64,000 nt of DNA from Bacteroidales bacterium (GCA_031284905.1 JAITXI010000077.1:6670-70669), one strand, 5' to 3'; counted from the stretch's first letter, positions 15,184 through 64,000 are shown. Program-made: numbers and translations. Notes: a model not told the origin generated them from the letters alone.

Positions 15184-15768
15184 ATGGGAAAACATAAAAC
15201 CCCGGAAATAAATTCAGGTTCAATGGCAGATATTGCTTTTCTACTTTTGATTTTTTTCTTGGTTACTACAACAATGGACACTGATACCGGTATTGCCCGC
15301 CAATTACCACCTATCGCTGAAAATAATAAAGTTAAAACTGAAGTTGAAATCAAAGAGAGAAATCTTTTACCTATTAAAGTAAATCAATATGATAAACTTT
15401 TAGTGGGAGGAAAACCAACTTTGGTTAATAATCTAAAAGAAAAAGCAAAAGAATTTATTAAAAGCAATCCGACCAAAAACGAGCTTCCTGAAATGGAAGA
15501 AAAAAGTATTAAAGGTATAAATAGTCCTGTTTTGGTTTCTAAAGGTATAATTTCTTTACAAAATGATAGAGGTACAACTTATAGTCGTTATATAGAAATT
15601 CAAGATATCCTTGTATCAGCATATAATGAATTAAGAAACGAAGCCGCTTTACAATATTTTGGAAAAACTACATTTGACGAATTAAGTGAAGTACAACAAG
15701 ATGCTATTAAAGAAATTTATCCGCAAAGAATATCAGAAGCAGAACCAAAAAATATAGGAGGAAAATAA
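15184..15768 (+). CDS. exbD: ExbD/TolR biopolymer transport protein
   Basis: N-terminal MADIAFLLLIFFLVTTT anchor motif typical of ExbD. Confidence 0.85.
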   Translation: MGKHKTPEINSGSMADIAFLLLIFFLVTTTMDTDTGIARQLPPIAENNKVKTEVEIKERNLLPIKVNQYDKLLVGGKPTLVNNLKEKAKEFIKSNPTKNELPEMEEKSIKGINSPVLVSKGIISLQNDRGTTYSRYIEIQDILVSAYNELRNEAALQYFGKTTFDELSEVQQDAIKEIYPQRISEAEPKNIGGK

Positions 15769-43073: not shown

Positions 43074-45524
43074 ATGTCTCTAACTATCGAAGATATTGAA
43101 AAAATAATTCCTTGTAAAATTTATGGGAGAAAAGAATACAAAATAAATAAAATTGTAACTGATAGTAGAAATCAAGTTGATTCAACGGATTGTTTGTTTA
43201 TCGCAATAAAAGGCAAATACAATGATGGCATAAAATATATTGAAGAAGAATATAAAAAAGGTGTCAGAAGTTTTATAATCAACGAAAATATTGATTATCA
43301 TAAGTTTGCAGATGCTTGTTTTATTAAAGTTGAAAATTCTATTACAGCTTTACAACAATTAGCTGCATATAAACGAAACTTATATAATATTCCAATAATC
43401 GGTATTACGGGAAGCAATGGAAAAACTATTGTAAAAGAATGGTTAAGTTGGATTTTGAATGAAAAATTTAATCTTACAAAAAACCCAAAGAGTTATAATT
43501 CACAAATTGGAGTGCCACTTTCAGTATGGCACTTGAACAATTTCTCAGAATTAGGAATTTTTGAAGCAGGAATTTCTCAACCTGATGAAATGAAAAATTT
43601 AGAGAAAATTATTCGTCCTACAATTGGAATTTTGACAAATATTGGAACTGCTCATCAAGCAAATTTTTCTACAATAGAACAAAAAATTAAAGAAAAATTA
43701 TTATTATTTCAAAATTCTGAAACATTAATTTACAATTGTGATGATGAATTAATAAATTTAGGAGAAAAAAAATTATCAGGAGAAAAAAAAATTATCACTT
43801 GGTCGAAAAAAAATACCGGTATAGTAAATATTACAAAAATTGTAAAGAAAGAAAATAAAACTCAAATATCTTTTATCTACAAAGGAAAAGAAAATAAATA
43901 TGAAATTCCATTTATAGATAATGGTTCTATAGAAAATTCAATAAGTTGTATTTGTGCGATTATTGCTCTAAATTTAGAATTTTCAGCTGATATAATAGAA
44001 CGATTCGGAACGTTGCCGTCAGTAAAAATGCGTCTTGAAGTTTTAGAAGGAATTTATAATAGTATATTAATCAGCGATATATATAATTCTGATTTTAATT
44101 CTATAGAAATAGCATTAGATTATCTAAATCAGAAAAAAGTTAATAGAGAAACAGTTGTAATATTGTCGGATTTTTTGCAGCATAATACTGAAAATACATA
44201 CGAAAACGTAAAATCTTTAATTGAAGCTAAAAAAATTGTTCATTTTATTGGAATTGGAGAAAAATTATTTCTAAATAAAGAAATTTTTGCGAAAAATCAT
44301 TCTTTTTACAGAACTACAGAAGAATTTCTTAAAAATATTGATTACCATAATTTTCACAACAAAATCGTTTTAATAAAAGGAGCCAGAGATTTTAAATTTG
44401 AAGAAATCACAAAAAAACTTCAAGCAAAAAATAATGAATCTACAATTGAAATTGATTTATCAATGCTCAAACAAAATTTAGATTATTTCAAATCACGTTT
44501 AAATCCAAACACAAAAATCATAGCAATGGTAAAAGCCTTTGGATACGGAAATGGACATTTTGAAATTTCTAATTTGTTGCAACACAACAATATAGATTAT
44601 CTGGCAGTGGCAATAGTTGATGAAGGAGTTGAATTACGAGATAAAGGGATTTCGCTTCCAATTATGGTTATGAATCCGGCAATTCATTATTTGCGAACGA
44701 TGATTGAATACAAACTTGAACCGGAAATCTATTCAATTGCATTGTTAACAGAATTAATGAAAGAATTGGAGATTTCAGGAATAAAAAATTTTCAAATTCA
44801 TTTGAAAATAGATACCGGAATGCATCGTTTAGGAATTTCTGAAAAAGATGTTGAAAATTTTTGTAATATTTTAAAATCAACAGATTTAATAAAAATTACC
44901 AGTATTTTTTCTCATTTAGTAGGAAGTGATGACAAAAAATTAGATTATTTTACACAAGAACAAGTTTCAAAATTCAATAAAATTTATTTTCAAATAGTTG
45001 AAAAAATTGGATACAAACCTGACCGTCATGTTTTGAATAGTGCCGGTATTATCAGATTTCCTGAATATGATTATGAAATGGTAAGATTGGGAATAGGACT
45101 TTATGGTTTAATGCCTGAAATTACAGATAAAATTTTCCAGATAAGCACTTTTGTGTCAATAATTTCACAAATTCACGAAATTGAAATAGGAGAAACTGTA
45201 AGTTATAGTCGTTCCGGAAAAATTTTAAGAAATTCAACAATCGCAACAATTCCTGTCGGCTACGCAGATGGTCTTGACCGAAGATTAGGAAATGGAAATT
45301 GGTATTTTGTCGTAAACGGACAAAAAGCTAAAACTATAGGAAACATTTGTATGGATATGACCATGATAGATATTACTGATATTCAAGCTAAAGAAGGTGA
45401 TGAGGTAATTATTTTTGGAAAAGAAAATTCTATTTGTAAAATGGCAGAAACACTTGGCACAATTCCTTATGAAATAATTACGGGAATTTCTTTGAGGATA
45501 AAAAGGGTTTATAGTGAGGAATGA
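43074..45524 (+). CDS. murF: Bifunctional UDP-MurNAc-tripeptide--D-Ala-D-Ala ligase (MurF) / alanine racemase (Alr) fusion
   Basis: N-terminal Mur ligase with the P-loop GITGSNGKT. C-terminal PLP racemase (AMVKAFGYGNG with the PLP lysine, plus YSRSG). A single 816-aa ORF. Confidence 0.92.
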   Translation: MSLTIEDIEKIIPCKIYGRKEYKINKIVTDSRNQVDSTDCLFIAIKGKYNDGIKYIEEEYKKGVRSFIINENIDYHKFADACFIKVENSITALQQLAAYKRNLYNIPIIGITGSNGKTIVKEWLSWILNEKFNLTKNPKSYNSQIGVPLSVWHLNNFSELGIFEAGISQPDEMKNLEKIIRPTIGILTNIGTAHQANFSTIEQKIKEKLLLFQNSETLIYNCDDELINLGEKKLSGEKKIITWSKKNTGIVNITKIVKKENKTQISFIYKGKENKYEIPFIDNGSIENSISCICAIIALNLEFSADIIERFGTLPSVKMRLEVLEGIYNSILISDIYNSDFNSIEIALDYLNQKKVNRETVVILSDFLQHNTENTYENVKSLIEAKKIVHFIGIGEKLFLNKEIFAKNHSFYRTTEEFLKNIDYHNFHNKIVLIKGARDFKFEEITKKLQAKNNESTIEIDLSMLKQNLDYFKSRLNPNTKIIAMVKAFGYGNGHFEISNLLQHNNIDYLAVAIVDEGVELRDKGISLPIMVMNPAIHYLRTMIEYKLEPEIYSIALLTELMKELEISGIKNFQIHLKIDTGMHRLGISEKDVENFCNILKSTDLIKITSIFSHLVGSDDKKLDYFTQEQVSKFNKIYFQIVEKIGYKPDRHVLNSAGIIRFPEYDYEMVRLGIGLYGLMPEITDKIFQISTFVSIISQIHEIEIGETVSYSRSGKILRNSTIATIPVGYADGLDRRLGNGNWYFVVNGQKAKTIGNICMDMTMIDITDIQAKEGDEVIIFGKENSICKMAETLGTIPYEIITGISLRIKRVYSEE

Positions 45525-51285: not shown

Positions 51286-53175
51286 ATGTGTGGAATTGTC
51301 GGAATTATTAATAAAAATGCTTTCAATTATGAAAATAAATTGAAACAGGCAATTTCTTTGCTCAAAGAACGAGGTCCTGATTATTCCAATTATTTTATCA
51401 ATAAAGATATAGGTTTCGGGCATACTCGACTTTCGATTATTGATACATCAGAAGCAGGAAATCAACCATTTATTGATGAAACGAAAAATTTTATCCTAAT
51501 TTTTAATGGAGAATTTTACAATCATCAACAATTTCGCAAAGAATTAGAAAATGATGGAATAAAATTTATTTCACATTCAGACACAGAAATTTTATTATAC
51601 TTATTAATAAAATACAAAGAAAAAGCTATTGAAAAAATTAATGGAGATTTTGCTTTTGCTTTTTACGACATCAAAAATAATATTTGCATTATTGCACGCG
51701 ATAGATATGGAATTAAACCATTATATTATTATTATTATGAAAATAATTTTATATTTGCTTCCGAACTAAAAGCAATTTTACAATTTGATATTCCAAAAAT
51801 TCTAAATAATACAGCTTTAAGAACTTATTTTCAATTAAATTATATACCTAACAATCAATGTTTTATAAAAAATATCAAAAAATTAACTCCGGGGAAATAT
51901 CTTAAAATAAAATTTGACGAAAAAAGATTTGGAAATCTAAACGAAATTCCTTATTATGAACTTAATTGTACTAATAATTATCAAAATATTAATTATAAAT
52001 CATCTTATGAAAAACTCAAAATATTATTAGATAATGCAGTTTCACAAAGATTAATTTCAGATGTTCCAATAGGCTGTTTTTTAAGTGGAGGAATTGATTC
52101 CTCAATAATAACAGCATTAGCTTCACAGCACACAGAGCATTTGAATACATTTTCAATAGGATTTAAAGATAATAATTTTTTTGATGAAACAAATTTAGCT
52201 GAAATTGTTGCAAAAAAATTTAATACAAATCATACGACTTTCAAGGTTTCAAATGACGATTTATTGCAAAATATCAACGAAATATTAGATTATTTTTCTG
52301 AACCATTTGCCGATTCATCTTCAATTGCTGTTTATGTTTTGAGCAAACTAACTCGTCAAAAAGCAACTGTTGCATTATCAGGAGACGGAGCTGACGAAAT
52401 TTTTGCCGGATACAACAAACATGCTGCTTTATACAGATATTTTAATTCAGGTTCAAAAGAAAAAATTGTTGCAAATCTAAATTTATTATGGAAAATTCTT
52501 CCAAAATCAAGAAACACAAAAATTACAAACACAATTCGTCAATTATACAAATTTTCAAACGCTGCAAAACTGTCGAATCAAGAAAAATATTGGTTTTTAG
52601 CATCTATTGGCAATGAAAATTATAGTAATTTATTATTAAAACCAGATATTAGTAATGAAGAATTTGAAATTTTTAAAAATAATTATTTACCAACAGATTT
52701 TTCAGATTTCAATAAAATCTTATTTTCAGATATGAATTTAGTTTTAGCTGGCGATATGCTTGTCAAAACCGATTTAATGTCGATGTCAAATTCATTAGAA
52801 GTCAGAGTTCCATTTCTCGACCATAATGTTGTAGATTTTGCATTTTCATTACCTTCGGAATATAAAATCACTCAAAATTGCAGAAAAAAAATTTTAAGAG
52901 AGAGTTTTGCAGATATTTTACCAGCAGAAATTCTCAATCATCCAAAACACGGTTTTGAAGTACCGCTCACGAATTGGTTACGTAATGAGTTAAACTATTT
53001 AATAATAACAAATTTAAACGAAACTTTCATAAAAGACCAAAATATTTTTAATTATCAAATAATAAAAAAACTAATTGAAAAACTAAATAGCAAAAATTCA
53101 GAAGATTCCGCTTCAAAAATTTGGGCTTTAATTTGCTTTCAAAATTGGTGGAAGAAATACGAAATAAATAATTAG
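51286..53175 (+). CDS. asnB: Asparagine synthase (glutamine-hydrolysing)
   Basis: N-terminal MCGIVGI nucleophile. PP-loop SGGIDSS. 629 aa. Confidence 0.93.
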   Translation: MCGIVGIINKNAFNYENKLKQAISLLKERGPDYSNYFINKDIGFGHTRLSIIDTSEAGNQPFIDETKNFILIFNGEFYNHQQFRKELENDGIKFISHSDTEILLYLLIKYKEKAIEKINGDFAFAFYDIKNNICIIARDRYGIKPLYYYYYENNFIFASELKAILQFDIPKILNNTALRTYFQLNYIPNNQCFIKNIKKLTPGKYLKIKFDEKRFGNLNEIPYYELNCTNNYQNINYKSSYEKLKILLDNAVSQRLISDVPIGCFLSGGIDSSIITALASQHTEHLNTFSIGFKDNNFFDETNLAEIVAKKFNTNHTTFKVSNDDLLQNINEILDYFSEPFADSSSIAVYVLSKLTRQKATVALSGDGADEIFAGYNKHAALYRYFNSGSKEKIVANLNLLWKILPKSRNTKITNTIRQLYKFSNAAKLSNQEKYWFLASIGNENYSNLLLKPDISNEEFEIFKNNYLPTDFSDFNKILFSDMNLVLAGDMLVKTDLMSMSNSLEVRVPFLDHNVVDFAFSLPSEYKITQNCRKKILRESFADILPAEILNHPKHGFEVPLTNWLRNELNYLIITNLNETFIKDQNIFNYQIIKKLIEKLNSKNSEDSASKIWALICFQNWWKKYEINN

Positions 53176-54462: not shown

Positions 54463-57400
54463 ATGAGAAAATTGACTAAAACCGTTGTCTTTGTTTGCAT
54501 GTTGGCTATGTTGATAGTGTTACCTTTAATAAAAGGAAATGCACAAACCAATGACAAAAAATTTTCAGAAGGCACTTTATACATAAAAATTAAAAGCAAT
54601 ATTGCATTGAGTGTTTCAAATAATAAAGGAAAAACTGACCCCAATGACATTTATTTTTTGCAAAAATTTGTAAATAACTATCAAATAACAGCAGTAGAAT
54701 TTCCATTTATTTCAACAAAAAGTGATATTTTACAAAGGACAATGAAAATTGAATTTAAAGATGTTGAAAACACTATTTCTTTAATCAACAATCTTAAAAA
54801 TATTAAAGAAATTGAATATGTTGAGCAAGCTCCAATTTACAGAACTGCTTCGTACAGTGAGCCAGATGATCCATATTTTAACAAAGAAGTTACCGGAAGT
54901 TATTTGAGTAATAGTTTAGGAACGACTAACACATCTTGGTTCTTAAATTTGATTCACGCACCAGAAGCATGGGTGCTCACTGATGGAGGACAAGATGTTA
55001 CAGTTGCAGTATTAGATAATGCATTTTTTACAACTCATCCTGATTTGACAAATAAAATTATAAGTACATATAATTTATCTGATTTGCAAATTATTTCTAA
55101 TGATGTTGAACCCATATTACCAACTTATGCTTGGAGCCATGGAACTCAAATGGCAGGAATTATTGCAGCAGAAACAAATAATGGAACAGGCATAGCATCT
55201 GTTGGAAACGAACATGTAAAATTAATGGCAATAAAATTAGGAAATGATATTGGACAAGCTGATGAAATATTAAATTTGCCTGAAGGAATTATCTATGCAG
55301 TAGATAACGGAGCAAAAGTAATAAATATATCAATGGCTACAACGGTATGGTCAGAAACTTTACTTCAAGCCGTAAACTATGCAACTAACAAAGGCTGTGT
55401 AATTATTGCAGCAGCAGGAAATAATGAAAGTTCCGAAAAATGCTATCCGGCAGCATTCCCTAACGTAATTGCTGTTGGTTCTTGCAATTCCAATGACACA
55501 AGAAGTTCTTTCTCTAACTTCGGAGATTGGATTGACATATATGCACCGGGTGGATATTCAACTACTGGATACCAAAACTCATTAGGAAGATTTTCTATTT
55601 TAACGACAAGTGCTAACACCGCCGGAACTATTAATGATATTCTGAATGGAGATAGTGGCGGAGCAGGCTCTTATTCAATAGCAGGAACTGGTTTAACAGG
55701 GAACTATGATATCATTTGGGGAACATCTGCTGCGACAGCTGTTGTTTCCGGAGTTTGCGGTTTAATATTATCTGTTAATCCAGATTTAACAACAAATCAA
55801 GTAAAACAAATATTAATTCAATCAGCAGATGGAACAAATGCAGGAATTAGAGTAAATGCTCTCAATGCTGTTCAAATGTCATCAACGAGTGCTTTAACAG
55901 ATAGTTTAACAGCCAATTTCGAAGCAGATATAACTTCAATAAATTTAGGCGAAACCGTAACCTTCACTAACACATCAATTGGGCATTATACAAATGTAGA
56001 ATGGACTTTTGAAGGCGGTAATCCTTCAACTAGTACAGACGCAAGTCCTTCCGTAACCTATAATATTCGTGGACAATTTGATGTTACTTTAAAATTAATA
56101 AATATTGATCCTACACCAATAATTAAAGATACATCTAAAATTATGAAAGATTCGACATTAACAGTAATAACCACTCCTATATTAGATGAAAATAATACTC
56201 AAATCGGAGAGACAATTGACTCTATTTGGAATGTTACAGCAGATACATTAACGAGAACTGATACCATATATAACATTTTAAACGAAACGACAGAAATTAA
56301 ATCGAAATTAATTTTAGTTGGAACACAAGTTGAAAATATGAATGAATTAGCAATTTCAGCTCTTCGCGAACAACTATTAAATTTAAACAATGGTTATTCT
56401 GTATTAAAAATTGAACCGATTAATCGAGATACAGTTTTGGCATTATCATACAACGATATAGAATATTCATTATCAACGACATTTAATGCGGGAACAACTT
56501 GGATATCATCTCTTATAACAATCCCAGATATTGATACGATTTTCGATTTCACAGCCACAAGTAATGAAGACATTATGATTTTAGCTTCCACTGACACGGG
56601 AAACCAAATTGGACTATATCTTTCAAATGATGCCGGAGTAACTTGGACATACAATATCTCTGCATTCCCAGGTTTTATAGGGGACTTCAAAAAGATTCAA
56701 ATGCTTTCAGACAGTATAGGCATCTGCATAGGACAAGAGGAAACGACAAATTATACTAAAATATATCGAACAACTAATGCCGGAATAAATTGGGTATTAA
56801 TCAATGTTACCGATACAGTTACAAATAATCCGTATTTAGACGGAATTACTTCTAACATTTTTACAAATAATTCTATTACAGCTTTCGGAACCGTTGCCGG
56901 TAGAATATTCACTTCAACTGATTTAGGAGAAACTTGGGATCATTCTATAATTTTTGATACAACAGAAAATTATTATGTTAAATCTGTATCCTTTGCAAAT
57001 GCAAAAAAAATAGCAGGTAATGTTTTGCAAGGTTTGGTGCTATTAAGAACAGAAAATAAAACTAAATTATTGAAAACAATCAATGGAACAACTTGGACAA
57101 ATGTAAATATTAACACTTTTAACGGAAACATTGAAGATATTTGTATCAATCCGACAAATGAAACAATAAAACCAAATAATAACAATAATGCAAACGAATA
57201 TGTTGCAATAGTAACAGATACTATAACATATAAGATTAAAACTATGTACTCTCGTAATGGTGGTACTGCTTGGCAAATAGTTGATTCTGCAATACTTTAC
57301 ACCAACATTGCACTTTATGATTTTCATAGAGGGTGGTTTGGTGGTAAAACATCAGATTTTTCAGGAGGAATTTACAAATGGTTTGATGTTCCTGAAATAA

Positions 57401-58326
57401 TTTCTCACAAAGTAGAAATATACGAAAGAGACACTCTCGGATTTGTTAATAATGATTTTCTAAAACTTCCAAAGGAACATTTCTACATAAAAACAATTGA
57501 ACCTGATAATAGAAATACCGTTATTTTGCAAAAGAATTTCGGCTCAATGTTTAGGTTCTATTATACTACTGAAGGACAACAAAATTCTGCAGAAATTAGA
57601 GGAATATCTATACCTATAAATAATTTACAGAGAGCGATATATACTCAAACAATTGAAGCTCATAATGGGGTTCGTTATAATTCACAATTAGATTCTATAA
57701 TTGTGAAAACTAGACGACATCCATTCATATTTATTCACGAAAATGGAAATCCTGTCATTTCTAATACTATAGATACTACAATTAATACTCACCAAGTTTT
57801 CCAATACACTGTGCGAATTTATGATACAGACTATGATGCATATCACGCTCCAATGGGAATAACAGGTGAAAATATCCAATTTAATTGTATTTTACCCCCA
57901 TCCGGTGGTTCTCCAAACTATAGTTGGTTATCTTTTACTGATAATTATGATACTACTGCAAATTATAAAACCGCAACATTGTTTGGAACTGCAGCAAACC
58001 CAAGAGAAGAAACAATTTATGTGAAATGTACTGATGGACTGTTTACAGATACTCTTAAAATAGTAATTCATGTATTAATTGGCTTAGAAACAAACGAATT
58101 AGATAATATCAATATTTATCCTAATCCAACTACAGACAATATTTACATAACTAATGCCGAAGGAATGAAATATGACATTATTGATATTACAGGTAAAATA
58201 GTTCTTTCAAATTCTATAATAAATTCAGAAGAAACTATTAATATTGAAAATCTACGAACAGGTAGCTATTTTATTAAATTCTATGGAAATAATAAAATTT
58301 CTACTAAAAAAATAATGAAATTATAA
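54463..58326 (+). CDS. Multidomain S8 subtilase: propeptide, catalytic domain, PKD, Asp-box beta-propeller-like region, T9SS CTD
   Basis: Catalytic triad contexts VAVLDNAF, SHGTQMAG and GTSAATAVVSG. PKD (VTFTNTS...VEWTFEGG). Asp-box motifs SNDAGVTW, STDLGETW, TTNAGINW and SRNGGTAW. C-terminal INIYPNPTTDNIYIT...GSYFIKF. Confidence 0.9.
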   Translation: MRKLTKTVVFVCMLAMLIVLPLIKGNAQTNDKKFSEGTLYIKIKSNIALSVSNNKGKTDPNDIYFLQKFVNNYQITAVEFPFISTKSDILQRTMKIEFKDVENTISLINNLKNIKEIEYVEQAPIYRTASYSEPDDPYFNKEVTGSYLSNSLGTTNTSWFLNLIHAPEAWVLTDGGQDVTVAVLDNAFFTTHPDLTNKIISTYNLSDLQIISNDVEPILPTYAWSHGTQMAGIIAAETNNGTGIASVGNEHVKLMAIKLGNDIGQADEILNLPEGIIYAVDNGAKVINISMATTVWSETLLQAVNYATNKGCVIIAAAGNNESSEKCYPAAFPNVIAVGSCNSNDTRSSFSNFGDWIDIYAPGGYSTTGYQNSLGRFSILTTSANTAGTINDILNGDSGGAGSYSIAGTGLTGNYDIIWGTSAATAVVSGVCGLILSVNPDLTTNQVKQILIQSADGTNAGIRVNALNAVQMSSTSALTDSLTANFEADITSINLGETVTFTNTSIGHYTNVEWTFEGGNPSTSTDASPSVTYNIRGQFDVTLKLINIDPTPIIKDTSKIMKDSTLTVITTPILDENNTQIGETIDSIWNVTADTLTRTDTIYNILNETTEIKSKLILVGTQVENMNELAISALREQLLNLNNGYSVLKIEPINRDTVLALSYNDIEYSLSTTFNAGTTWISSLITIPDIDTIFDFTATSNEDIMILASTDTGNQIGLYLSNDAGVTWTYNISAFPGFIGDFKKIQMLSDSIGICIGQEETTNYTKIYRTTNAGINWVLINVTDTVTNNPYLDGITSNIFTNNSITAFGTVAGRIFTSTDLGETWDHSIIFDTTENYYVKSVSFANAKKIAGNVLQGLVLLRTENKTKLLKTINGTTWTNVNINTFNGNIEDICINPTNETIKPNNNNNANEYVAIVTDTITYKIKTMYSRNGGTAWQIVDSAILYTNIALYDFHRGWFGGKTSDFSGGIYKWFDVPEIISHKVEIYERDTLGFVNNDFLKLPKEHFYIKTIEPDNRNTVILQKNFGSMFRFYYTTEGQQNSAEIRGISIPINNLQRAIYTQTIEAHNGVRYNSQLDSIIVKTRRHPFIFIHENGNPVISNTIDTTINTHQVFQYTVRIYDTDYDAYHAPMGITGENIQFNCILPPSGGSPNYSWLSFTDNYDTTANYKTATLFGTAANPREETIYVKCTDGLFTDTLKIVIHVLIGLETNELDNINIYPNPTTDNIYITNAEGMKYDIIDITGKIVLSNSIINSEETINIENLRTGSYFIKFYGNNKISTKKIMKL

Positions 58327-58400: not shown

Positions 58401-60116
58401 ATGAAAAGTAAAATTATTTTAATAATTATTAGTATATTAATTGTACAGTTTGCCCTTGGACAAGAACAAATAGGCAAATGGAGTGAAGGAAAAATTTTTG
58501 TTAAATTTAACAAAAATGTAAATTTAACTTTTGACGAAAATGGAGAATTCAATGTAAAGGAATTTCCTTTCATTAATGAACTTTCTTCAAAATACGAATT
58601 TACTAAAATAAAATTTTCTTTTGCAGAAACCAAAAGTGAAAAATTAAAAAGAACAATAAAAATTGAATTTTTAAAAACAGAAGGTATTGATTTATTGATT
58701 AAAGAACTTTTGCAACAACCGGAAATAGAATATGCAGAAAAAATTCCTAATTTTACAAAATTTGCCGTTCCAAATGACCCATTATATAATCAAATAATAA
58801 CAGATGCTCATTATAACATAATGGGTTTTTTAACAGGCGATTTACCGGAAGCAAATACAAGTTGGCATTTGAATAAAATAAATGCAGAACAAGCATGGGA
58901 ATTACAATCAGGAGACCCAAATATTGTCGTAGCAGTATTAGATAACGGAATTTGGACAGACCATCCTGATTTACAAAATGTTGTAGTTCATAAATATGAT
59001 ATTGCTGATAATGATACAAATACTACTCCTCCGACTAATACTTATGAATGGTCTCATGGAACACATACAGCAGGTTTAATAGGAGCAGAAACAAATAACG
59101 GAATTGGAGTAGCCTCCATTGGTAATGGAATTAGTGTTATGGCAATCAAAATACAGGAAAATTCTACGGAAGACATGAGTTCAGGAATTGAAGCAATGGC
59201 TTATGCAGCCGACAACGGTGCAAAAATTATTAGTATGTCATGGGGTGGAGAAGAAACTACTACCACAGAAGCAAATGCAGCAAATTATGCTTACGAACTA
59301 GGTTGCGTATTATTGGCTTCTGCCGGAAATAATGGAGACGGTTCTATGAATATGATTGGAATGACCACAAATGGAATAATGTATCCTGCCGCTTACAATT
59401 GTGTTGTCGCTGTCGGCGCTTCAGATTATAATGATGCAAAATCGACTTTTTCACAATATGGCACTTGGGTTGATATTTTATCTCCAGGTGGTTATGGAAA
59501 TAATGGGTTTAGTTTGTCAATTCCTATACCTGGCATGGAAGGGATTGCTTTAGGTCAATTCTCAGTATTAAGTACAACTTATAGTACAGCCGGACCGATA
59601 GATTTATTGGGAGCAAGCGGTGGTGCTAGTGATTACAATATTTCAGGAAATTATGATATTATGCCCGGAACTTCAATGTCGTGTCCTATTGCAGCCGGTT
59701 TATGCGGTTTAATTTGGTCGGCAAATCAGAATTTAACAAACGAACAAGTAATTAATATTTTAAAAACAACTTGTACAAACGTTGATGCTCAAAATTCAGA
59801 ATTTATTGGTCAAATCGGTGCCGGTCGAATTGACGCTTATGCGGCTATTTGTGCAGCTCAGGGAATCATAAATACCCCTCAATTTGAAAATAAATTCATT
59901 TCTGTTTATCCAAATCCGACAAATAATTTTGTAAATATTACAAATTGCAAAAATACAACTTATGAAATTTTAGATATACTTGGTAAAGTTATAAAGAAAG
60001 GTACAATTTTAGAAGATTTTACTACAATAAATATAACAGATTTACAGACAGGTAATTACGTTTTAAAAATAAAAAAACAAGAAAATTCTACAAATATTAA
60101 ATTAATAAAAATCTAA
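58401..60116 (+). CDS. S8 subtilase with T9SS CTD (shorter paralog)
   Basis: VAVLDNGI, SHGTHTAG and GTSMSCPIAAG. The propeptide is similar to the upstream paralog. C-terminal ISVYPNPTNNFVNIT...GNYVLKI. Confidence 0.92.
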   Translation: MKSKIILIIISILIVQFALGQEQIGKWSEGKIFVKFNKNVNLTFDENGEFNVKEFPFINELSSKYEFTKIKFSFAETKSEKLKRTIKIEFLKTEGIDLLIKELLQQPEIEYAEKIPNFTKFAVPNDPLYNQIITDAHYNIMGFLTGDLPEANTSWHLNKINAEQAWELQSGDPNIVVAVLDNGIWTDHPDLQNVVVHKYDIADNDTNTTPPTNTYEWSHGTHTAGLIGAETNNGIGVASIGNGISVMAIKIQENSTEDMSSGIEAMAYAADNGAKIISMSWGGEETTTTEANAANYAYELGCVLLASAGNNGDGSMNMIGMTTNGIMYPAAYNCVVAVGASDYNDAKSTFSQYGTWVDILSPGGYGNNGFSLSIPIPGMEGIALGQFSVLSTTYSTAGPIDLLGASGGASDYNISGNYDIMPGTSMSCPIAAGLCGLIWSANQNLTNEQVINILKTTCTNVDAQNSEFIGQIGAGRIDAYAAICAAQGIINTPQFENKFISVYPNPTNNFVNITNCKNTTYEILDILGKVIKKGTILEDFTTINITDLQTGNYVLKIKKQENSTNIKLIKI

Positions 60117-60130
60117 TATTTTAATAAAAA

Positions 60131-60158
60131 AACGAGTAATTAAATTTGCTCGTTTTTT
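60131..60158 (+). terminator. Intrinsic terminator
   Basis: Stem ACGAG/CTCGT extended by A-U pairs, with a 11-nt loop, followed by TTTTTTT. Confidence 0.65.
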
Positions 60159-60205
60159 TATTTATTTTTAAGAATAAAAAATTTTGAAAATAGCTAAAAC
60201 TATTA

Positions 60206-60213
60206 TAATTTTG
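60206..60213 (+). promoter_or_regulatory. Bacteroidota-type promoter (-7 TAATTTTG with -33 TTTG) upstream of gatE
   Basis: TAnnTTTG lies 24 nt upstream of the ATG. TTTG at 60183-60186 is 19 nt upstream of the -7 box. Confidence 0.55.
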
Positions 60214-60236
60214 AATAAAAATAATTCTCAAAAAAA

Positions 60237-62222
60237 ATGAAAAAAACACAATTTGATCCTGAAAAAAATTATATAGAAACTAGGGAAAAAATTGGCTACG
60301 TGCCACGAACAGAAGCTACTCAAGAAACTTACGATAAAATAGGATTTATGTCAGGTTTAGAAGTTCATCAACAACTTTTGACTGAAAAAAAATTATTTTG
60401 TCATTGTAAAGCAGGAGTTTTTCATAAAAATGAAGAATTTGATGCAGAAATAGTTCGTCACATGAGACCAACTTTAAGCGAACTTGGAGAATATGACGGC
60501 ACAGCTTTAATGGAATTTAAAACAAAAAAAGAAATTGTTTACAGAATCAATAATGAAAACGCTTGTACTTACGAAGTTGATGATACTCCTCCATTTATAA
60601 TAAATAAAGAAGCATTAAATAAAGCATTGCAAATAACAATGTTAAGTAAATTTAATTTAGTTGGAGAAGTTCATATTACAAGAAAACAATATCTTGACGG
60701 AAGTATTCCAACCGGCTTTCAACGTACAGCAATTTTAGGAGTTGAAGGTGAAATTCAATTAAGAAATAAAAAAGTAAGATTAATTCAACTAAGTATTGAA
60801 GAAGATTCTTGCCGTGAAATTAGTGATATTGGTCATCGTAGAATTTACAAAACAGACCGTTTAGGAATGCCTTTAATAGAAACAGTAACTTATCCTGATA
60901 TGGTCAATCCAGACGAAGTTAAAGAAGCCTGCGACTATATCCGATTTTTAAATCGTTCTTCAAATAATGTCCGAATAGGAATGGGAGCTACTCGTCAAGA
61001 TGTAAACGTTAGTTGTAAAGGCGGTACACGAATTGAAATAAAAGGAGTTGCTCATACAAAATGGATTCCGGAATTAACTCATAATGAGTGTTTTAGACAA
61101 TGGGCATTATTAGCAATTCAAAAAGAACTCAAAAATCGTTTTGCTTCAGAAAATGAAATGCAAAATTGGAAAACCAACTACGCAGAATTGAATTTTGACG
61201 AATTTAAAATAACAACCGAAGCTATTAAACAAGCAAAAGAAAATAATCATAAATTAATCGCAGTAAATATTCCAAAATTTAAAGGAATTTTATCTCATTT
61301 TACCCAACCGGGAAAATGTTTTGCAGATGAAATTTCTGACAGATTAAAAGTTATTGCTTGTATTGAAAAGCCAAATATGATTCATAACGAACTTCCTAAC
61401 CAACCGATAACACCTGTTGATATGGAAATTATTCAATTAATCATGCAAACCGATGAAGAAAATGACAGTTTGATAATTTTTTGGGCACCGGAAGCTGATG
61501 TAAAAACAGCATTAGAAACCATTGAAGAAAGATGTAAAATGGCATTTTTTGAAGGCGTGCCAAAAGAAACAAGAAAATCATTTGAAAATGGAACTACAAT
61601 TTTTGAAAGAGTTTTACCGGGAGCTGACAGGATGTATCCGGATACAGATTCAACTCCTATTCCACTTGATAATAACGAATTGGAAGAATTAAGAAAAAAT
61701 ATTCCCGAAGATGTTTGCGAAAGAATAAATCAATTTCAAAAATGGCAATTCCCTGAAGATACTTTTACTTATCTTTTAAGCAAAAATTTATTTTCAATTA
61801 TTAAACAAACCATTGATTTAGATTTTAACCCAAAATTTATCGCAAAATTATTTGGACATTTTCTTAAAAACTACGAAGGAAAAAATCAAAATATTAAAAT
61901 TGACTACAACAAAATTATAGAATTATTAAAATTCATTAAAAATAATCATTTGGAATGTGAAATAGCATTTAAAATGTTACCTAAAATATTTACTAATATA
62001 GACAATAATTTTGAAAATATCCTTTCTGAAATAAAATTCAAGAAATATTCACAAGAAGAAATTCTTTCAAAAATTGACTCTTTAAGCTACGACTTTGATA
62101 AAGTTGCGAAAGAAAGAAACACAAAAAATAAGATTGCTTGGATAATGGAAGAACTCCGTGATACAGCAATTGGAAATATCAATTTAACAGAATTAAAAAA
62201 TAACATTGCTAATAGAATATAA
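60237..62222 (+). CDS. gatE: Glutamyl-tRNA(Gln) amidotransferase subunit E (archaeal type)
   Basis: Matches the GatE pattern and not GatB: GLEVHQQLLTEKKLFCHC, RHMRPTLSELGEYD, YLDGSIPTGFQRTAILG, KTDRLGMPLIETVTYPDM, GMGATRQDVNVS and IEIKGV. 661 aa with a long C-terminal helical tail. Confidence 0.9.
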   Translation: MKKTQFDPEKNYIETREKIGYVPRTEATQETYDKIGFMSGLEVHQQLLTEKKLFCHCKAGVFHKNEEFDAEIVRHMRPTLSELGEYDGTALMEFKTKKEIVYRINNENACTYEVDDTPPFIINKEALNKALQITMLSKFNLVGEVHITRKQYLDGSIPTGFQRTAILGVEGEIQLRNKKVRLIQLSIEEDSCREISDIGHRRIYKTDRLGMPLIETVTYPDMVNPDEVKEACDYIRFLNRSSNNVRIGMGATRQDVNVSCKGGTRIEIKGVAHTKWIPELTHNECFRQWALLAIQKELKNRFASENEMQNWKTNYAELNFDEFKITTEAIKQAKENNHKLIAVNIPKFKGILSHFTQPGKCFADEISDRLKVIACIEKPNMIHNELPNQPITPVDMEIIQLIMQTDEENDSLIIFWAPEADVKTALETIEERCKMAFFEGVPKETRKSFENGTTIFERVLPGADRMYPDTDSTPIPLDNNELEELRKNIPEDVCERINQFQKWQFPEDTFTYLLSKNLFSIIKQTIDLDFNPKFIAKLFGHFLKNYEGKNQNIKIDYNKIIELLKFIKNNHLECEIAFKMLPKIFTNIDNNFENILSEIKFKKYSQEEILSKIDSLSYDFDKVAKERNTKNKIAWIMEELRDTAIGNINLTELKNNIANRI

Positions 62223-62231
62223 TTTACGAAA

Positions 62232-63617
62232 ATGGAAGGAAAAGATTTACAAGGCTATAAAGGAAAAGCAAGAGAAATTTTACAAAAATATAATGTTAGA
62301 GTTTGGGGTGAAGTAGTTATACAATCTACAAGAGGAGAGTTTAAAGGAAGAGTATTACCGCGTGCTGAAAATACAGACGACATTCATATTGTTTTAAAAG
62401 TAAATACAGGATATAATATCGGAATTGACATAAATACAATTACAGATATTAAAGAAATAGGTTATAATGTAGCAAATTATGCCATTCCTGAGAAACAGTT
62501 TCCCTGCACAGAAGGATTACCACACGTAAAACTTTTAGGAACCGGAGGAACAATTGCTTCACGATTGGATTATCGTACAGGGGCAGTAATACCGGCATTT
62601 TCTCCGGGAGAATTGTATGGAGCAGTTCCGGAACTTGCCGATATTTGTAATTTAGATACCGAGAAAATCTTCGCAGTTTTTAGCGAAAATATGGGTCCCG
62701 AACAATACATTAAATTAGCAGAAGCTATTGGTAATGAAATAGAAAAAGGAATTGACGGAATCGTAATTGGGCATGGAACAGACACATTACACCATACAGG
62801 AGCTGCCTTAACATTTATGTGTCAAAATTTACCGGTTCCTGTTGTCCTTGTTGGCTCGCAACGTTCTTCTGACAGACCAAGTTCCGATGCAGCTCTAAAT
62901 TTAATGCACGCAATGACAGCAGCCGGACGAGGAAATATTGCAGAAGTAATGATTTGTATGTTCGGACCAACTTCCGATGAATATGGGCTACTTCATAAAG
63001 GAACAAGAGTAAGAAAAATGCATTCTTCATATCGTTCTACTTTCCGAACAATTGGAGATACCCCACTTGCAATGGTTACCCGTAAAGGAGTTGAACCTAT
63101 CAAAAAAATATTTAACACAAGGCGTAACGATAAAAATGTAATTATAAAACCATATTTTTCCGATAAAGTAACAATGGTTTATTATTATACAGGAATGAAA
63201 CCTGACGTAATTGACGGATTAGTTGCTGCCGGCTATAAAGGAATAATTTTTGTCGGTACAGGATTAGGACACGTAAACAAACTTATTTATCCGGCAATTC
63301 GCAGAGCACAAGAAGCTGGTGTTCACATGTATATGACTCTTCAAACAATTTGGGGCTATGTGCAAATGTACGTTTACGACACAGGTAGAGATATGATGGC
63401 TATGGGAATAATTCCGGCAGGAAATATGTTACCGGAAGTTGCATACATAAAATTAGGTTGGGCATTAGGTCAAACTGACGACCATGAAGAAGTAAAACGA
63501 TTGATGCTCACTCCGATAAATGATGAAATTACAGAAAGAGAACCATATAATGGATATTTAGTTTATCAAGGAGGAGTACCGGAAGTAGAAGAATTTATTA
63601 AAAAAGTACATAAGTAA
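62232..63617 (+). CDS. gatD: Glutamyl-tRNA(Gln) amidotransferase subunit D (asparaginase-like, archaeal type)
   Basis: GatD-specific N-terminal beta domain (GEVVIQSTRGEFKGRVLP...VLKVNTGYNIGI). Asparaginase catalytic motifs GTGGTIASRLDYRTGAV and GHGTDTLHHT. 461 aa. Confidence 0.9.
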   Translation: MEGKDLQGYKGKAREILQKYNVRVWGEVVIQSTRGEFKGRVLPRAENTDDIHIVLKVNTGYNIGIDINTITDIKEIGYNVANYAIPEKQFPCTEGLPHVKLLGTGGTIASRLDYRTGAVIPAFSPGELYGAVPELADICNLDTEKIFAVFSENMGPEQYIKLAEAIGNEIEKGIDGIVIGHGTDTLHHTGAALTFMCQNLPVPVVLVGSQRSSDRPSSDAALNLMHAMTAAGRGNIAEVMICMFGPTSDEYGLLHKGTRVRKMHSSYRSTFRTIGDTPLAMVTRKGVEPIKKIFNTRRNDKNVIIKPYFSDKVTMVYYYTGMKPDVIDGLVAAGYKGIIFVGTGLGHVNKLIYPAIRRAQEAGVHMYMTLQTIWGYVQMYVYDTGRDMMAMGIIPAGNMLPEVAYIKLGWALGQTDDHEEVKRLMLTPINDEITEREPYNGYLVYQGGVPEVEEFIKKVHK

Positions 63618-63620
63618 AAA

Positions 63621-63780
63621 ATACGGGTGAACAAACCGGAAACGGACAGATGATGTTTGTTAGCATGAGGGCTATCGCCACTCTACAAGTTGAACAATAA
63701 AATCTAAAATCGTAAACGGCTTTAGCCCTCTTGTGGCGTGAAGCGTAACAACGGCAAAGTTCTAATGTAGCAAAGCGGAA
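63621..63780 (+). ncRNA. Candidate structured RNA (unassigned family): either a 5' leader of the downstream gene or an independent sRNA
   Basis: My hand count gives 70 G+C in 160 nt, far above neighbouring intergenic DNA. Hairpin AACAAA/TTTGTT plus CCG-GAAA-CGG (63630-63661). Long-range helix GAGGGCTA (63667-63674)/TAGCCCTC (63723-63730). Competing or pseudoknot pairing CGCCAC (63676-63681)/GTGGCG (63733-63738). Strand not established. Confidence 0.4.
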
Positions 63781-63789
63781 TAATCAAAA

Positions 63790-64000
63790 ATGATTGACAT
63801 AGATAATAAAATAGTTCATTTTGATGTTTTTCAGGAAAAATTTTGTTGTAATTTACAGAAATGTAAAGGAAAATGTTGTATAGAAGGTGATTTAGGAGCA
63901 CCTTTAACAAAAAAAGAAATTACGGAAATAAAAAAAATCTTACCTAAAATTCAAGAATTTTTAACACCCGAAGCAAAAAAAGCAATCAAAGAAAATAATT
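63790..64000 (+). CDS. DUF3109-family Cys-rich protein, 3' end outside the window
   Basis: ATG at 63790. Translation is MIDIDNKIVHFDVFQEKFCCNLQKCKGKCCIEGDLGAPLTKKE, carrying the C.L.KCKG.CC.EGD.GAPL signature. The ORF is still open at the window end. Confidence 0.7.
   Translation, partial: MIDIDNKIVHFDVFQEKFCCNLQKCKGKCCIEGDLGAPLTKKEITEIKKILPKIQEFLTPEAKKAIKENN

Follow-up and report, generated by a model that had tools for sequence, protein, structure and literature searches.

A gatE-gatD gene pair of the GatDE amidotransferase type in a low-GC Bacteroidales genome and its place in a bacterial clade

The window analysed here, a stretch of 64,000 nucleotides from a Bacteroidales bacterium (GCA_031284905.1, JAITXI010000077.1:6670-70669), carries a gene pair that is a GatDE-type two-gene amidotransferase in a Bacteroidales genome. 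The pair probably encodes a functional heterodimeric GatDE and belongs to a monophyletic bacterial clade that is not of recent making and probably goes back to one old, Asgard-like origin; this reading as a whole is given a probability of about three in four. Both genes lie on the same strand with an intergenic gap of 9 nt, so that the two subunits are encoded together, and two candidate signals precede them:

60123..60172, + strand: terminator-like hairpin (ACGAG...CTCGT core) with a T-run, a pattern match only, from a consensus scan
60183..60213, + strand: Bacteroidota-type promoter-like motif, a sequence pattern with TTTG at 60183, a 19-nt spacer and TAATTTTG at 60206-60213
60237..62222, + strand: gatE, 661 aa, identified by HMM, PDB alignment and motifs
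62232..63617, + strand: gatD, 461 aa, identified by HMM, PDB alignment and motifs

Identity of the two subunits

The product of the first gene is recognised by both NCBI equivalog HMMs for GatE, which have curated cut-offs: NF003107 scores 484.5 bits (cut-off 456) and TIGR00134 402.9 bits (cut-off 319.55). GatB models, the cut-offs of which are all 315 or more, reach 121.7 bits at best, under a cut-off of 338. Full-length alignment with the solved archaeal structures gives 281 bits for 1zq1_C and 272 bits for 2d6f_C, compared with 65 bits for the best GatB chain in the PDB. A GatB identity of this reading frame is ruled out by both sets of scores. For the second gene, TIGR02153 gives 491.3 bits (cut-off 324) and NF003217 487 bits (cut-off 310), and the Pfam domains GatD_N (PF18195; 44.7 bits, cut-off 25.7), Asparaginase and Asparaginase_C are all found on its product. 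The type I asparaginase subfamily model passes as well (368, cut-off 260.5) but scores lower than the GatD models, and the full-length alignments to the solved GatDE structures reach 376 and 372 bits against 141 for the best asparaginase. A plain asparaginase is thereby ruled out, as the GatD-specific models and PDB chains score higher.

A preliminary description had named these two adjacent plus-strand reading frames GatE and GatD on the strength of short motifs. Both frames are present as described, with GLEVHQQL, KTDRLGMPLIE and GMGATRQDVNVS all in the first translation and GTGGTIAS and HGTDT in the second. The comparison of profile HMMs that it proposed agrees with these names, since the GatE and GatD cut-offs are passed and the GatB cut-offs are not. 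Its wider annotation, archaeal-type GatE and GatD with ameliorated composition in a bacterial host, is upheld by the HMMs, the PDB alignments and the codon usage.

GatE is built from a cradle domain, a GatE-specific insertion domain and a helical/YqeY-like tail and is predicted to be the tRNA-binding kinase/transamidase subunit. The catalytic and metal-binding motifs of the cradle (the His of GLExHxQL, EED, DRxGxPLxE, RxDxNxS, ExKGV and RxYPxTD) are all present, as they are across the bacterial clade when aligned with archaeal GatE. The 273 profile positions of the Pfam GatB_N match are spread over residues 39-481, pointing to an insertion of some 170 residues; in the alignments to 1zq1_C and 2d6f_C, residues ~300-440 fall on their insertion region. 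Pfam GAD (PF02938) is below threshold in the window GatE and is recorded for several of its relatives in the bacterial clade. The GatE HMM aligns end to end, tail included (residues 30-660 to model positions 4-627 of 630); Pfam GatB_Yqey is undetected in the window GatE. GatD would be the glutaminase subunit. Its catalytic residues are intact (Thr in GTGGTIAS, Thr-Asp in HGTDT and Lys in RVRKMH), and these asparaginase-type residues are conserved with respect to 2d6f_A and 1zq1_A and in all relatives aligned.

The pair resembles the archaeal GatDE of Methanothermobacter thermautotrophicus (2D6F) and Pyrococcus abyssi (1ZQ1) in having both subunits, in domain architecture (GatD_N plus an asparaginase fold in GatD; cradle, insertion and tail in GatE), in the catalytic motifs and in the short GatE-type length of the loop that faces the first tRNA base pair. 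It differs from them in its bacterial host and in sequence, with GatD about 44-45% identical and GatE about one third identical (30-38% to typical archaeal cluster representatives). Three local features of GatE differ as well. The N-terminus has about 25 additional residues compared with archaeal GatE, as is usual in the Bacteroidota clade. The Gly motif that the tail of GatE has in archaea and other bacteria, RG[KR]xDGK, is here replaced by AIGNINL, within the Bacteroidota form AIGN[MI]NL. The first-pair loop reads NNVRIGMG, equal in length to the archaeal GKVKRGLG but less basic.

The GatB subunit of bacterial GatCAB has homologous cradle and tail domains and performs the same kinase and transamidase chemistry with a glutaminase partner. 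However, it is devoid of the GatE insertion domain, has a Lys-rich tail motif KXGKXK, and is partnered by the amidase-family GatA and by GatC, whereas GatE is partnered by the asparaginase-like GatD. At the first-base-pair site bacterial GatB has a 3-10 turn and GatE instead a short basic loop (PMC2811023); the window GatE has the short loop and not the turn. This loop is slightly less basic in the window copy than in its Bacteroidota relatives.

Host genome and flanking signals

The host is a low-GC Bacteroidales bacterium. The Bacteroidota-style context that had been reported for the window is confirmed by T9SS Por_Secre_tail proteins, BamG, UvrB and a MurF/Alr fusion, to which NqrB and CysRS can be added; a BamJ-like match is sub-threshold. 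Signs of the genome erosion in which, according to the preliminary description, the pair may have replaced glnS or gatCAB are not seen in the window, which is densely coding and encodes T9SS substrates, a TonB receptor and cell-wall genes. The composition of the pair is that of the host, as the preliminary description had held for codon and AT bias: GC3 is 0.168 in gatE and 0.216 in gatD, within the 0.124-0.217 of the other window genes, and the KL distance of codon usage is 0.053 and 0.064, within their 0.020-0.119.

It might be argued that the pair is an artefact, either of a chimeric or contaminated contig or of a GatB and an ordinary asparaginase miscalled as GatDE. The slightly raised GC (0.344) of the window's last 2 kb would fit a chimera, but the higher GC of gatD sits in codon positions 1 and 2, i.e. 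in amino-acid composition, and not in position 3. An independent Logan assembly (SRR14710888) reproduces both junctions with the genes in the same order (S8 peptidases, gatE, gatD and downstream genes), which together with the host-like codons settles the question of contig integrity: the contig is not chimeric. The GatDE genes of relatives are located on bacterial contigs of 1.7-4.1 Mb, and the GatB models lie far under their cut-offs while the GatD-specific models lie above the asparaginase models. An artefact is therefore given next to no probability.

The hairpin at 60123-60172 would end the upstream S8 peptidase gene and separate it from gatE, so that gatE-gatD would form its own transcription unit. 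The promoter-like motif ends 24 nt before the gatE ATG, a suitable position. Of the host-type promoter claimed beforehand, the TTTG and TAATTTTG elements are indeed in place, but the motif is not enriched in the AT-rich window (8 observed against 6.2 +/- 2.5 expected, with 24 of 100 shuffles reaching 8). With its count at chance level, the motif alone is weak evidence for a promoter. A sigma-70 scan likewise gave chance level only. Downstream of gatD, a GC-rich spacer of 173 nt was considered as a structured RNA and rejected, having no Rfam match at E<=1, a fold z-score of -1.25 and no conservation in related loci.

Distribution and origin of bacterial gatDE

The gatDE of the window does not stand out within the large bacterial clade to which it belongs. 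A public entry with exactly its GatE sequence already exists under the name "GatE [Bacteroidales bacterium]". The best 120 GatE homologs, among them cultured Ancylomarina species and Mb-scale contigs, have Bacteroidota names wherever they are named; their identity to the window GatE is 62-100%, and 62-75% for 119 of them. Within the Bacteroidales, carriers belong to the Marinifilaceae, the Salinivirgaceae and others. In all 15 Bacteroidales loci whose sequence continues far enough past gatE, gatD comes directly after it; the identities, 74-82% for GatD and 58-70% for GatE (58-75% over all Bacteroidota relatives), indicate purifying selection. The same order is found in five of five further bacterial loci, four of them outside the Bacteroidota and one in a Bacteroidota genome. 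Members from other bacterial phyla are 41-51% identical in GatE and 59-67% in GatD, and those that are named include Calditrichia, KSB1, Latescibacteria, Krumholzibacteria, Aminicenantes, Desulfobacterota, Desulfaltia and Deltaproteobacteria. Compared with the clade at large (Ancylomarina spp., MAGs of Marinifilaceae and Salinivirgaceae, and MAGs of other phyla), the window copy has the same operon order and no substantial difference.

The novelty that the preliminary description attached to the pair is lost with these results, as gatDE turns out to be widespread in related Bacteroidota, cultured Ancylomarina among them, and is also present in many other bacterial phyla. Thousands of bacterial genomes, from many phyla, already have the gatE-gatD operon in their annotation; a full-text search of the literature found no paper describing such a bacterial enzyme. 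The two histories offered earlier, an old acquisition from an archaeon or a poorly described bacterial clade that retains the genes, each hold in part: the genes have long been resident, and a large bacterial clade does carry them.

A GatE tree was built by neighbour joining (NJ), a simple distance method, with 60 bootstraps and a single GatB outgroup. The bacterial GatE clade is monophyletic in 59 of 60 bootstraps and its Bacteroidota subclade in all 60. When rooted with GatB, the tree places the bacterial clade inside archaeal diversity, beside Heimdall/Hod, and not as sister to all archaeal GatE; the Heimdall sister position is recovered in 40 of 60 bootstraps, a moderate value. Both by score and in the tree, the closest archaeal clusters are those labelled Heimdallarchaeota and Hodarchaeales, yet the top-scoring archaeal GatE has just 37% identity to that of the window, and GatD barely separates Asgard (47%) from other archaea (44-45%). 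The QYLDGS(I/V)P and YPDT states of the bacterial proteins recur in the Asgard GatE sequences (Heimdallarchaeota TET29438.1 cluster; Hodarchaeales MHA2245723.1). On the Hodarchaeales contig, gatE and gatD overlap in a layout like that of the bacterial clade, whereas on the Heimdall contig the two genes are divergently transcribed.

Most likely, gatE-gatD would have entered bacteria once, in ancient times, from an Asgard-related (Heimdall/Hodarchaeales-like) archaeon, and would then have spread or been inherited as an operon. The operon is neither a recent nor a lineage-specific import. A recent horizontal acquisition from an archaeon into this MAG alone could appeal to nothing beyond the archaeal reputation of the family and is scarcely credible, given that the best-matching archaeal GatE shows 37% identity against 58-75% with conserved synteny for Bacteroidota, and that codon usage is indistinguishable from that of the host.

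Vertical descent from the last universal common ancestor, with loss in most bacteria and without any archaeal transfer, would be another way to account for a bacterial clade that is monophyletic, deep and distributed over several phyla. Sheppard and Soll reportedly proposed such a descent for GatDE in general, and the QYLDGSIP state, which has its Pro in common with GatB, may be ancestral. Against this, the GatB-rooted NJ tree nests the bacteria within the archaea, near Heimdall/Hod, and the bacterial distribution is patchy, with labelled members from a limited set of phyla. By convention, several phyla that carry gatDE are placed together with Bacteroidota in the FCB superphylum. Classical Bacteroidota genera use glnS and/or gatCAB according to a survey that did not look for gatDE (PMC4206432). 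Vertical descent is accordingly considered very improbable, and a single old entry from an Asgard-like source is the preferred reading.

Predicted function and significance

The most likely function of the pair, as predicted from its sequence, is the transamidation of Glu-tRNA(Gln) to Gln-tRNA(Gln). In such a scheme a non-discriminating GluRS, which the pathway would need, makes Glu-tRNA(Gln), and GatD would hydrolyse glutamine (or asparagine) to release ammonia. GatE would bind Glu-tRNA(Gln), phosphorylate its gamma-carboxyl group with ATP and use the channelled ammonia to form Gln-tRNA(Gln), with tRNA(Gln) as the presumed substrate in vivo. The Gln-tRNA routes of Bacteroidota are a patchwork of glnS only, gatCAB only, or both (PMC4206432 Table S1), which makes a third interchangeable route plausible. 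No gene for GlnRS or a non-discriminating GluRS is present in the ~64 kb of host genome examined, and no tRNA(Gln) gene in the window. The related loci L001-L024 contain no tRNA genes (L025 and L026 were outside the scan), and neighbouring genes vary between loci, without conserved neighbours such as a GluRS paralog or tRNA-Gln that would hint at function.

Bacterial genes of this clade always form a gatE-gatD operon, and their predicted substrate is bacterial tRNA(Gln), both of which set them apart from archaeal GatDE. Bacterial tRNA(Gln) usually has a U1:A72 pair. In archaea, GatDE recognises its tRNA(Gln) by the A1:U72 pair and the D-loop (PMC9499178), so substrate recognition in the bacterial enzymes must differ or have adapted. 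The remodelled tail motif of the Bacteroidota clade, which is implicated in tRNA discrimination, and the reduced positive charge of the first-pair loop could reflect such an adaptation or a change of substrate.

A retained GatDE could also have a different or auxiliary job, for instance as a back-up or conditional route beside GlnRS, in the amidation of some other mischarged tRNA (Asp-tRNA(Asn), for example), or in non-translational amidation. In the survey of PMC4206432 (Table S1), every one of the gut and oral Bacteroidales has glnS and asnS but no gatCAB, which makes a glnS-positive background plausible for the order. On the other hand, none of the catalytic residues for the glutaminase, kinase and transamidase steps is lost, and GatD identity across families is 74-82%, which fits an essential core function. 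There is also no obvious need for an Asp-AdT, since the window encodes a glutamine-hydrolysing asparagine synthase and every Bacteroidota genus read in PMC4206432 Table S1 has asnS. A different or auxiliary role is considered unlikely, and transamidation of Glu-tRNA(Gln) remains the preferred function. A bolder proposal would make GatDE the sole route to Gln-tRNA(Gln) in these Bacteroidales and the wider clade: a Heimdall-like Asgard archaeon would have donated the genes long ago, and their products would have taken over from both GlnRS and GatCAB. On this view GatE would have acquired its remodelled tail motif, its N-terminal extension and its less basic loop as adaptations to bacterial tRNA(Gln) with its U1:A72 pair and bacterial D-loop. 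This proposal is possible, but the balance of judgement is against it.

Reviews up to 2022 call GatDE archaea-only (PMC2811023, PMC8007984, PMC9499178), and arguments have been rested on this restriction, e.g. that co-evolution with archaeal tRNA(Gln) blocked the transfer of GlnRS into Archaea. The gene pair of the window itself adds little, being a recognisable GatDE with public sequence and name that is typical of its bacterial relatives. The wider picture, a large, monophyletic and operon-conserving bacterial clade that includes cultured Ancylomarina, is of some value for the understanding of aminoacyl-tRNA synthesis. It makes testable how GatDE recognises bacterial tRNA(Gln) and whether it substitutes for GlnRS or GatCAB in Bacteroidota. 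If GatDE were the sole route following an Asgard transfer, it would be the first documented case of a tRNA-dependent amidotransferase replaced across domains, and the rule in the literature that GatDE is archaea-only would be overturned.

Identity of the two genes

The last 3.8 kb of the window is occupied by two co-directional genes separated by 9 nt, gatE and gatD, which encode the subunits of the tRNA-dependent amidotransferase regarded as the archaeal route to Gln-tRNA(Gln). The genes and the features around them, all on the + strand, are:

51286-53175, +: glutamine-hydrolysing asparagine synthase of the AsnB type, about 7 kb upstream of gatE
54463-58326 and 58401-60116, +: two tandem subtilisin-like S8 peptidases (1287 and 571 aa), directly upstream of gatE
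60123-60172, +: hairpin and T-run (consensus pattern), between the upstream peptidase gene and gatE
TTTG at 60183, 19-nt spacer, TAATTTTG at 60206-60213, +: promoter-like motif ending 24 nt before the gatE ATG
60237-62222, +: gatE (ORF1), 661 aa, matched by GatE equivalog HMMs
60237-60326 and ~62154-62201, +: GatE residues 1-30 and 640-655, carrying features of the Bacteroidota clade (alignment)
62232-63617, +: gatD (ORF2), 461 aa, matched by GatD equivalog HMMs

All five motifs quoted in the preliminary description are found in the translations of the two ORFs, and its annotation is correct. In NCBIfam, ORF1 passes the cut-offs of the GatE equivalogs NF003107 (484.5 bits, cut-off 456) and TIGR00134 (402.9 bits, cut-off 319.55), while the top-scoring GatB model reaches only 121.7 bits against a cut-off of 338. 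ORF2 passes those of the GatD equivalogs TIGR02153 (491.3 bits, cut-off 324) and NF003217 (487 bits, cut-off 310), with the type I asparaginase subfamily model below both at 368 bits. The Pfam GatB_N match is stretched over residues 39-481 of ORF1, pointing to an insert of about 170 residues inside the domain; ORF2 has the domains GatD_N, Asparaginase and Asparaginase_C. Each protein can be aligned from end to end with the solved archaeal GatDE complexes of Pyrococcus abyssi (1zq1) and Methanothermobacter thermautotrophicus (2d6f). GatE scores 281 bits against 1zq1_C and 272 against 2d6f_C, with any GatB at 65 bits or less, and GatD scores 376 and 372 bits, with the top asparaginase at 141. 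The HMM and structure alignment scores thus rule out a GatB or a plain asparaginase. The active sites are intact in the alignments: GatD keeps the catalytic Thr, Thr-Asp and Lys, and GatE keeps the cradle motifs (His, EED, DRLGxPLxE, RQDxNxS, EIKGV and RMYPDTD).

Genomic setting and expression signals

The preliminary description had placed the pair in a Bacteroidota-style genome, and this is borne out by the other window genes, whose bacterial, Bacteroidota-type products include several with T9SS sorting tails, BamG, UvrB, KdsD, NqrB and CysRS, as well as a sub-threshold BamJ-like protein, AsnB, a TonB-dependent receptor and a MurF-Alr fusion. The last of these (43074-45524, +) is an intact bifunctional D-Ala-D-Ala adding enzyme-alanine racemase of a known fusion type, scoring 1051.7 bits against NF008897. 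The tandem S8 peptidases are probably secreted proteases unrelated to gatDE; the 571-aa protein has a T9SS sorting tail in NCBIfam, and Por_Secre_tail is listed for both in precomputed Pfam results.

GC content is 24-34% throughout the window. The codon bias of gatE (GC3 0.168, codon-usage KL distance 0.053) and gatD (0.216 and 0.064) is like that of the neighbours, as had been proposed, both measures lying within the ranges of the other 30 window genes (GC3 0.124-0.217, KL 0.020-0.119). The raised GC of gatD sits in codon positions 1 and 2 and therefore reflects amino-acid composition. An independent Logan assembly of SRR14710888 has the identical gene order of AsnB, glycosyltransferase, two S8 peptidases, gatE, gatD and downstream genes. 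Taken with the host-like composition and codon usage, this shows that the contig is not chimeric at this point. The preliminary description suggested that gatDE may have taken the place of glnS or gatCAB in an eroding genome; no sign of erosion was found within the 64-kb window.

The host-type promoter motif described upstream of gatE has the sequence and position claimed for it. As the window holds 8 occurrences of the pattern against 6.2 expected, it is only a plausible promoter. From its sequence, the hairpin at 60123-60172 looks like a terminator of the upstream peptidase gene, in which case gatE-gatD would be a separate transcription unit. The 173-nt spacer after gatD (63618-63790) has 41% GC against about 28% for the window, but is probably nothing: Rfam gave no match at E<=1, the fold z-score is -1.25, and the spacer is not conserved in related loci.

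Distribution and ancestry of bacterial gatED

The window GatE is 100% identical to a protein that NCBI and JGI already list under the name GatE, on a 78,203-bp contig. The remaining 119 of its best 120 homologs share 62-75% identity, nearly all with full-length coverage; all those that carry a name belong to Bacteroidales, Bacteroidia or Bacteroidota, and several homologs sit on contigs as long as 1.7-4.1 Mb. A scan of GTDB species genomes with six query-specific peptide patterns, which gives a lower bound, found at least 17 Bacteroidales loci with gatE, among them cultured Ancylomarina salipaludis and A. euxinus, two more Ancylomarina strains, and Marinifilaceae and Salinivirgaceae MAGs. In every Bacteroidales locus with sufficient downstream sequence gatD directly follows gatE, and identity to the window proteins is 74-82% for GatD and 58-70% for GatE. 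The operon is kept under purifying selection. In one Marinifilaceae MAG (locus L011), the intact gatD is followed some 2.3 kb downstream by a second copy of just the last 31 GatD residues (15667-15759), with 84% identity, apparently a short gene fragment that arose by duplication. The preliminary description had regarded the pair as novel, unless gatDE turned out to be common among close Bacteroidota relatives. It is common there, and the protein was already deposited, so the claim of novelty fails.

An exhaustive HMMER search with GatE over 1.84 billion cluster representatives gave 577 clusters at E<1e-30 in three tiers: a single Bacteroidales cluster with 59% identity, some 35 full-length clusters with 41-51%, and the bulk with 30-38%, as for typical archaeal GatE clusters. 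The genomic contexts of four non-Bacteroidota middle-tier members and one Bacteroidota genome are all bacterial (sigma-54 activators, HPr kinase/PTS, RND efflux with an OEP component, Mur ligases, MraZ/RsmH, Lnt, T9SS), and gatE precedes gatD in all five. The genes reside stably in bacterial genomes. A profile search with the non-Bacteroidota members returned named matches from Calditrichia, candidate division KSB1, Latescibacteria, Krumholzibacteria, Aminicenantes, "Candidatus Desulfaltia", a Deltaproteobacteria MAG and a Clostridiales MAG. Source databases already call these non-Bacteroidota proteins GatE.

In a neighbour-joining tree of 126 GatE sequences and one GatB outgroup (609 alignment columns, 60 bootstraps), the Bacteroidota subclade is recovered in 60/60 replicates and all bacterial GatE as a single clade in 59/60. 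One old bacterial gatED clade is therefore well supported. Support falls to 40/60 for the sister cluster containing the Heimdallarchaeota protein TET29438.1 and to 16/60 for the next group outward, with a Hodarchaeales protein. The Heimdallarchaeota contig is truly archaeal (ribosomal genes S13-S4-S11, a TFIIB-type zinc ribbon) and has gatD and gatE adjacent but divergent (L025, 5939-9488); on the Hodarchaeales contig gatE and then gatD are co-directional and overlapping, a layout as in the bacterial loci (L026, 10001-13254). All bacterial and Asgard-labelled GatE share QYLDGS(I/V)P and YPDT, whereas the other 73 archaeal representatives have xV(I/V)DGSNT and YPET. Since the Pro of the first motif occurs in GatB as well, this state may be ancestral. 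GatD identities fall in parallel tiers (79-81%, 59-67%, 47% and 44-45%), with Asgard hardly set apart from other archaea. The best guess at present for the source is an Asgard-related one, though with only moderate support. Of the alternatives first offered, ancient acquisition from an archaeon or a poorly described bacterial clade, the old residence and the broad clade stand, but neither sets this lineage apart.

Function, tRNA recognition and pathway

By homology with the characterised archaeal enzyme, GatD would free ammonia from an amide donor and GatE would take Glu-tRNA(Gln), activate its gamma-carboxyl with ATP and amidate it to Gln-tRNA(Gln) (PMC9499178, PMC2811023). The same homology suggests the activity, substrate and pathway partners of the bacterial pair, which would require a GluRS able to mischarge tRNA(Gln). 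Bacterial tRNA(Gln) normally has a U1:A72 pair. Archaeal GatDE is reported to recognise archaeal tRNA(Gln) by its A1:U72 pair and D-loop (PMC9499178). In the Bacteroidota clade, the loop at the first-pair site has the short GatE-type length and fewer basic residues (NNVRIGMG in the window, GKVKRGLG in archaeal GatE), the tail motif is AIGN(M/I)NL instead of the RG(K/R)xDGK of archaeal and other bacterial GatE, and the GatE proteins all start with some 25 additional residues. These changes could be an adaptation to bacterial tRNA or the sign of a shifted substrate. The AsnB-type synthase in the window implies a capacity to produce free Asn, which leaves no evident requirement for amidating Asp-tRNA(Asn).

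Bacteroidota use a patchwork of Gln-tRNA routes according to a 2014 survey covering 547 genera: glnS and asnS without gatCAB in gut and oral Bacteroidales, gatCAB without glnS in Cytophagales, and both glnS and gatCAB in a few genera (PMC4206432 Table S1). As this patchwork exists and the survey left out gatDE, it is plausible that marine and sediment Bacteroidales have a further, third route interchangeable with these. A scan of related loci L001-L024 found no tRNA genes.

Reviews of 2009, 2021 and 2022 call GatDE exclusive to archaea (PMC2811023, PMC8007984, PMC9499178), and a full-text literature search found no paper describing bacterial GatDE. As far as that search reached, the bacterial gatED clade is known to annotation pipelines and undiscussed in the literature. 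Within a known enzyme family, the window gatDE is an ordinary member that had already been deposited. The remaining interest lies in this gap between literature and databases, and in tRNA recognition and pathway replacement, which are approachable in cultured Ancylomarina.
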